Of a stretch of DNA of 64,000 bases, positions 33,879 to 34,117 are shown piece after piece. The position numbers were made by a program, and so were the translations under genes. The notes beneath the pieces were generated by a model, which saw nothing but the letters and a program-made list of their open reading frames with translations, ran no database searches and was not told where the DNA came from. The DNA is from Escherichia coli (GTDB lineage Bacteria; Pseudomonadota; Gammaproteobacteria; Enterobacterales; Enterobacteriaceae). Location: the NCBI RefSeq assembly GCF_045037415.1, contig NZ_CP173438.1; one strand, written 5' to 3'. Every line of letters begins with the position of its first letter. Position 1 is the first letter of the stretch.

Positions 33879-34117
33879 GCCTGATGCGACGCTTAACGCG
33901 TCTTATCAGGCCTACAAAGAGCACTGTTCCCGTAGGCCGGATAAGGCGTTCATGCCGCATCCGGCAACTGCGCCATAATGCCTGATGCGACGCTTAACGC
34001 ATCTTATCAGGCCCACAAAAAGCACTGTTCCCGTAGGCCGGATAAGGCGTTCTCGCCGCATCCGGCAACTGCGCACTAATGCCTGATGCGACGCCTGCCG
34101 CGTCTTATCAGGCCTAC
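33879..34117. repeat. BIME: five REP elements arranged as about 2.4 tandem copies of a ~101-bp unit
   Basis: Three copies of GCCTGATGCGACGC…TCTTATCAGGCC(T/C)AC alternating with two of GTTCCCGTAGGCCGGATAAGGCGTT…GCCGCATCCGGCAACTGCGC. Confidence 0.7.

Follow-up and report, generated by a model that had tools for sequence, protein, structure and literature searches.

REPs of the Y and Z2 types, the BIMEs in which they occur, tandem amplification of these elements, their copy-number polymorphism between strains and their targeting by the insertion sequences IS1397 and IS621 are all established already. By definition, BIME-2 elements contain Z2 and Y REPs that are inversely oriented, separated by short linkers and present in several tandem copies (Ton-Hoang et al., 2012, PMC3333891). 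They are associated with RAYT/TnpA-REP, the REP-associated tyrosine transposase, and biochemical work demonstrated that they are cleaved and recombined by TnpA-REP (PMC3333891). BIME-1 elements consist of one Y and one Z1 unit with a conserved, long, IHF-binding L linker between them. REP325, the BIME-2 between yjdM and yjdN of MG1655, was the source of the Rfam naRNA4 model RF02564 (PMC4550694) and was found in a 2026 study to terminate transcription in a partly Rho-dependent manner and to stabilise the mRNA upstream of it (bioRxiv 10.64898/2026.03.23.713779). According to the same study, expression was higher in convergent gene pairs with REPs, and the half-lives of REP-terminal mRNAs were not longer when considered genome-wide, with no uniform effect of the REPs (bioRxiv 10.64898/2026.03.23.713779).

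Here we analysed the array between cbpM and torD in a stretch of DNA of 64 kb, which we refer to as the window. The array is a canonical BIME-2, because it is composed of Z2 and Y units in inverse orientation that are connected by short linkers and repeated in multiple tandem copies, and there is nothing new in kind about it.

Anatomy of the cbpM-torD array

The gap between cbpM and torD (33872-34125, 254 bp) is the whole space between two convergent ORFs. To its left lies cbpM (CDS 33566-33871, + strand, with the stop codon TGA at 33869-33871) and to its right torD (CDS 34126-34725, - strand, with the stop codon TAA at 34128-34126), the last gene of torCAD. Both gene names had been assigned correctly in the initial annotation of this DNA: CbpM is identical to CbpM of K-12 at 101 of 102 positions and TorD to its K-12 counterpart at 191 of 200, the stop included in both cases, and the record of strain SK1144, which is 100% identical over 801 bp, has cbpA-cbpM and torD-torA-torC annotated at matching positions and no annotated feature in the gap between cbpM and torD. 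The array is entirely extragenic, lying between the stop codons of cbpM (33871) and torD (34126), and was rightly said to fill the convergent intergenic region, of which it makes up approximately 95%. The spare sequence outside the array amounts to 7 nt 3' of the cbpM stop and 8 nt on the torD stop side, and the array constitutes the common part of the 3' UTRs of both operons, cbpAM and torCAD. Upstream of cbpA, at approximately 32392-32493 (-), identical or near-identical records contain a short pseudogene remnant ('hypothetical protein, incomplete, missing N-terminus'), which overlaps a 55-aa ORF at 32392-32559.

The array comprises five palindromic units (PUs) with alternating orientations, Z2+, Y-, Z2+, Y- and Z2+. 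The units were typed by comparison with three REP sequences quoted in PMC11208160, and for each PU the alternative REP types scored lower than the assigned one. PU1 (33879-33915, +) is a Z2-type REP with the sequence GCCTGATG...CTAC that agrees with the published Z2 at 34 of 37 positions, and it is followed by a tail-to-tail linker of 16 nt, AAAGAGCACTGTTCCC (33916-33931), which, like the other linkers, was read directly from the sequence. PU2 (33932-33965, -) is a Y-type REP (GCCGGATG...CTAC on the - strand) with 33 of 35 positions in agreement with the published Y, and a head-to-head linker of 14 nt, AACTGCGCCATAAT (33966-33979), connects it to PU3 (33980-34016, +), another Z2-type REP (32/37) with the variant tail CCAC and a G>A exchange in the stem. 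A second tail-to-tail linker of 16 nt, AAAAAGCACTGTTCCC (34017-34032), leads to the Y-type PU4 (34033-34066, -; 33/35), and a second head-to-head linker of 14 nt, AACTGCGCACTAAT (34067-34080), to the terminal Z2-type PU5 (34081-34117, +; 35/37). The CTAC/GTAG tetranucleotide at the foot of the units is thus kept in four of the five, with CCAC in PU3.

All five PUs are imperfect palindromes and are predicted to form hairpins with an internal mismatch on both strands. The folding energies on the + and - strand, respectively, were -22.2 and -21.8 kcal/mol for PU1, -19.1 and -20.4 kcal/mol for PU2, -15.5 and -20.0 kcal/mol for PU3, -21.4 and -22.2 kcal/mol for PU4, and -21.0 and -21.9 kcal/mol for PU5, so that the total range was -15.5 to -22.2 kcal/mol, with z scores between -3.4 and -7.2. 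Transcripts of 3' UTR length were also more stably folded than shuffled sequences, with z scores of -7.5 in the cbpAM sense and -9.6 in the torD sense. A simple scan of the intergenic region found no intrinsic-terminator-like site on either strand.

In a REP pattern scan, the five units were recovered in the order +, -, +, -, +, in agreement with the five alternating REPs of the initial annotation, and zero matches were obtained in 20 shuffles. The sole other match in the 64 kb was a lone Y-type REP, GCCGGATGCGGCGTGAACGCCTTATCCGGCCTAC, at 13415-13448 (+). Tandem Repeats Finder reported a single array at 33878-34120, in which a 101-bp BIME-2 unit occurs in 2.4 copies with 91% matches, no indels and a score of 416, and a repeat search delimited 101-nt copies at 33878-33978 and 33979-34079, which are 93% identical, and a partial third copy starting at 34080. 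At lag 101, the self-identity of the intergenic region was 0.876, compared to a median of 0.25 over lags 20-159 and a background at this lag of 0.254 ± 0.043 in 254-nt tiles of the whole window. The periodicity is thus present with the period of about 101 bp and the copy number of about 2.4 that had been given before, and the span noted at that time, 33879-34117, coincides to the base with the outer limits of PU1 and PU5. An inverted-repeat search with a 9-nt seed reported no repeats in the array, and a search with a 6-nt seed detected pairs between adjacent palindromic units; the shorter seed was required because the REP stems are interrupted.

The classification of the array as a BIME in the initial annotation was right, and the presence of Z2 and Y units with short linkers allows it to be sharpened to BIME-2. 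All features of this class that can be read from the sequence were found: Z2 and Y units, their alternation, imperfect palindromes, short linkers, a variable tandem copy number and an extragenic site. The array was also considered as a BIME-1, and this reading was rejected, as the units are of type Z2 and not Z1 and the IHF consensus (WATCAANNNNTTR) had no match in the array on either strand.

The Rfam naRNA4 model RF02564, for which the gathering score is 59.5 bits, matched two Y-linker-Z2 units, at 33935-34013 and 34036-34114. Both matches exceed the gathering score on the + strand (75.2 and 81.0 bits, respectively) and reached 46.3 and 52.7 bits on the - strand. The same model scored 95-111 bits on REP325, compared to 75-81 bits in the array of the window. 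Since the model additionally matches the K-12, O157 and LF82 alleles of the cbpM-torD array as well as the unrelated phnE-phnD BIME (in L009), a match indicates the Y-Z2 anatomy of a BIME-2 unit and nothing more specific. The array explains why the gap contains neither a gene nor an intrinsic terminator, and it accounts for the naRNA4 match and for two spurious ORFs that are considered below. Beyond correct annotation, its importance is slight. Elsewhere in the window, Rfam models matched at 12135-12328 (+; Ysr251, RF02855, a Yersinia antisense sRNA family, 188.7 bits, full length) and at 44796-45218 (-; cspA thermoregulator, RF01766, 160 bits, full length), the latter presumably being the 5' UTR of a cold-shock gene, and two 85-nt tRNA genes were detected at 3752-3836 (+) and 55764-55848 (+).

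Allelic variation and insertion sequences at the locus

When 801 bp around the array were searched against 5,426 complete E. coli genomes, the cbpM-torD locus was found in 5,425 of them, and about 600 complete genomes contained the five-unit allele of the window at an identity of at least 99%. Copy number had been suggested to vary between strains, and it does: the inspected representatives fell into intergenic length classes of 92, 151-153, 254 and 355 bp, and alleles of the window type have 3, 5 or 7 units and differ in steps of exactly 101 bp. The 92-bp allele (M1, 0H26) consists of a fused remnant and one Z2. In the 151-153-bp allele of MG1655 and O157:H7, a degenerate unit is followed by Y and then Z2, and a window-type allele of 152-153 bp (BH100, ST80) has three intact units. 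Five units are present in the 254-bp allele, to which the window and a mosaic version in JNE23-011 belong, and seven in the 355-bp allele (LF82, Nissle, JA0266), which is the longest array among the inspected representatives. The NC101 records have a 655-bp span, equal to that of the seven-unit records.

Allele frequencies are estimates from an evenly spaced sample of 60 out of 5,433 ranked records. In this sample, 25 records (~42%) had a span of about 699 bp, corresponding to the K-12/O157 type with a gap of about 150 bp, and 20 (~33%) had the 639-bp span of the 92-bp allele. The 801-bp span of the five-unit allele was observed in 8 records (~13%) and an insertion in one (~2%). The remaining 5 (~8%) gave a split match typical of a longer array, and the three that were fetched all had seven units.

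The allele of the window becomes identical to that of ST80 (0 mismatches) when exactly 101 bp are taken out, with any start at 33920-33952. When exactly 101 bp are instead duplicated, it agrees with the Nissle allele except for 1 mismatch and with the LF82 allele except for 2. The array changed in steps of whole 101-bp units with the composition Z2-linker-Y-linker, and these gains and losses may stem from slippage during replication or from unequal recombination, in either case between identical copies, or from RAYT cleavage and strand transfer. The RAYT type I cleavage motif TGCC|TGAT begins at 33878, 33979 and 34080 (+), one unit apart. Between RAYT on the one hand and homologous recombination or slippage on the other, the sequence cannot decide. 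JNE23-011 (NZ_AP045067.1, L012, 373-626) carries a five-unit mosaic of 254 bp, in which the edge on the cbpM side is of the window type and the unit and edge on the torD side are of the K-12 type (GCTAAACGCG...CAAACGACG), which suggests that recombination may have taken place inside the array.

IS1397 inserts specifically into the palindromic units of BIMEs. In WP4-W18-ESBL-09 (NZ_AP022069.1, L007, 1000-2527), this member of the IS3 family is located in the Z2 loop of an allele of the 92-bp type and is flanked by a TAAA duplication; the insertion illustrates how an IS specific for BIMEs targets cbpM-torD itself. The bridge-RNA recombinase IS621 naturally targets ATCAGGCCTAC (PMC11208160), of which exact copies are found at 33905-33915 in PU1 and at 34107-34117 in PU5, both on the + strand; the 64-kb window contains no other copy, and PU3, the middle Z2, has ATCAGGCCCAC in its place. 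With IS1397 seen and the IS621 target present, the locus marks a hotspot for REP-targeting insertion sequences.

Transcript ends and possible functions of the array

Term-seq data from K-12 place the dominant 3' end in the torD sense at 1062547 (+) (Adams et al., 2021, PMC7815308; LB OD 2.0 and M63 tabs, judged from the file position). On the K-12 allele, this puts the end 149 nt downstream of the torD stop, where the RNA has passed the base of its last hairpin, the one closest to cbpM, by 7 nt. In the cbpAM sense, which is antisense to torD, the same study identified a Rho termination region at 1062039 (-) with a Rho score of 6.5 and a p value of 2e-9, where coverage changed from 64 to 11 without bicyclomycin and from 112 to 125 with bicyclomycin (PMC7815308). 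In K-12, this region is situated beyond the array, within a few hundred nucleotides. The transcript data refer to the three-unit K-12 allele with its degenerate cbpM-proximal unit and not to the five-unit allele of the window. As K-12 transcripts of both operons traverse the array, it neither terminates nor insulates tightly. The insulation of the two operons that had been proposed in the initial annotation is therefore borne out only in part, with torD-sense RNA crossing the whole array in K-12 and cbpAM-sense RNA being terminated by Rho beyond it, whereas the proposed stabilisation of 3' ends is consistent with the Term-seq end 7 nt past the last hairpin. Neither cbpM nor torD is mentioned in the supplements of the 2026 REP preprint. 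Inside cbpA, a strong Term-seq 3' end was reported 75 nt into the ORF at 1063700 (-) of MG1655 NC_000913.3 (score 36736; Adams et al., 2021; M63 glucose tab by file position), which may reflect premature termination or processing in the first part of cbpA.

We consider it very likely that the RAYT-associated BIME-2 is the shared hairpin-rich 3' UTR of the convergent cbpAM and torCAD operons, where it would function as an exonuclease barrier and as a partial, Rho-linked attenuator. The functional steps are deduced from the K-12 data at this locus and from the sister array REP325. On either transcript, the PU hairpins (-15 to -22 kcal/mol) most likely define the mRNA 3' ends and protect them from 3'-to-5' exonucleases, and the torCAD 3' end would be defined where the hairpins block exonucleolytic decay in this direction. 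In addition, the hairpins probably lower the amount of read-through that reaches the opposing operon, and termination would then be completed by Rho. Roughly one in three of the sampled genomes manages with a 92-bp remnant with one good hairpin, which argues that the extra copies are not required.

Effects on translation, selfish persistence and a role at the DNA level were considered in addition or as alternatives. According to the summary of Liang et al. (2015) given in PMC12306157, translation of a gene was reduced when a REP followed its stop codon at a distance of fewer than 16 nt. On the cbpM side, 7 nt separate the stop codon from the base of the first hairpin, and on the torD side 12 nt; both distances may be short enough for such an effect on the translation of the two genes. 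Stalling of terminating ribosomes by the stop-nearest hairpins, which would lower CbpM and TorD output by trans-translation, is a tentative explanation that we regard as doubtful, since the outermost unit alone would suffice for it and the array would be left unexplained. It is likewise possible, but not probable, that the array is selfish or neutral, in which case RAYT activity and recombination would keep REPs in tolerated convergent 3' intergenic regions and the copy number would drift, with no effect on cbpAM or torCAD being selected. Alleles of 92 to 355 bp coexist at high frequency, differ by clean gains or losses of units and include K-12-type alleles with degenerate units, as may be expected for such drift, and genome-wide REPs are without a uniform effect on half-lives (bioRxiv 10.64898/2026.03.23.713779). 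However, the K-12 3' end was mapped at the base of a hairpin, and deletion of REP325 gave measurable local effects (bioRxiv 10.64898/2026.03.23.713779). The array may have a selfish origin and still exert incidental 3' UTR effects, and its neutrality is therefore not exclusive of the proposed function as exonuclease barrier and attenuator. Both cbpAM and torCAD are weakly expressed under most conditions. This argues against the array being a gyrase-binding topological insulator that absorbs positive supercoils between the two operons, which we consider unlikely, although positive supercoils would build up in just such a convergent setting and gyrase binding and topological insulation have been reported for BIMEs (PMC3333891, introduction).

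Processing of the Y-linker-Z2 units to discrete naRNA4-like sRNAs of about 77 nt that bind HU, bridge cruciform DNA and condense the nucleoid appears highly improbable. Two units on the cbpAM-sense strand score above the Rfam gathering threshold, and a model involving HU and cruciforms has been described (PMC4550694), but the Rfam model matches any BIME-2 unit, as exemplified by phnE-phnD, and in the 2026 study neither deletion of REP325 nor overexpression of naRNA4 affected the nucleoid and no stable ternary complex was observed (bioRxiv 10.64898/2026.03.23.713779). The senior author of the original naRNA4 paper belongs to the group that performed the 2026 study, and what naRNA4 does in the cell is disputed (bioRxiv 10.64898/2026.03.23.713779). 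A coding function was rejected. Although a 77-aa ORF at 33912-34145 (-) and a 94-aa ORF at 34086-34370 (+) are both present in a mechanical ORF list, they consist largely of REP sequence, overlap torD, are unannotated in every record inspected, identical RefSeq records included, and are broken by the 101-bp indels between strains, so that they are almost certainly spurious and a small protein encoded here is next to inconceivable.

A further reading would be that the alleles with 1, 3, 5 and 7 units act as a lineage-specific 'dial' for the overlap of the cbpAM and torCAD transcripts. The 92 to 355 nt of fully complementary, hairpin-rich 3' UTR might then set mRNA stability, read-through and antisense interference of the RNase III type. 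We regard this idea as improbable. If it were true, such interference between a stationary-phase chaperone operon and an operon for TMAO respiration would be set by the number of units, and the lineages of LF82, Nissle and NC101 with seven units would differ systematically from K-12-like lineages. In any case, the locus offers a clean and well-populated unit-step series of BIMEs (92, about 152, 254 and 355 bp), which could serve as a natural allelic series for relating REP number to the 3' ends of convergent operons.

Relation to described BIMEs and REP doublets

With the BIME-2 family, in the nomenclature of Gilson, Bachellier and Hofnung, the cbpM-torD array has in common the alternating Z2 and Y units, the short linkers, the GTAG/CTAC tetranucleotides, the extragenic position and the variable tandem copies. 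Nothing of substance is different, and the only deviations are CCAC and one weakened stem pair in the middle Z2. Among characterised arrays, REP325 of MG1655 is the closest relative. The unit can be aligned end to end with that of REP325, for which we determined a period of 100 and 5.8 copies; the PUs correspond nearly base for base, whereas the linkers are divergent and the period is 101 instead of 100. REP325 comprises 12 units and is flanked by tandem genes of a single operon, whereas five units are located between convergent operons in the window. The allele at the same locus in K-12, between torD (b0998) and cbpM (b0999), shares the position, the Y unit and the terminal Z2, but has three units in 151 bp, a degenerate cbpM-proximal unit and other edge sequences, compared to five intact units in the 254 bp of the window. 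Inverted pairs of REPs are also characteristic of the REPINs, the REP doublets with which a RAYT transposase is associated (Bertels and Rainey, PMC3116915); in contrast to these, the doublet at cbpM-torD is iterated in tandem in place.
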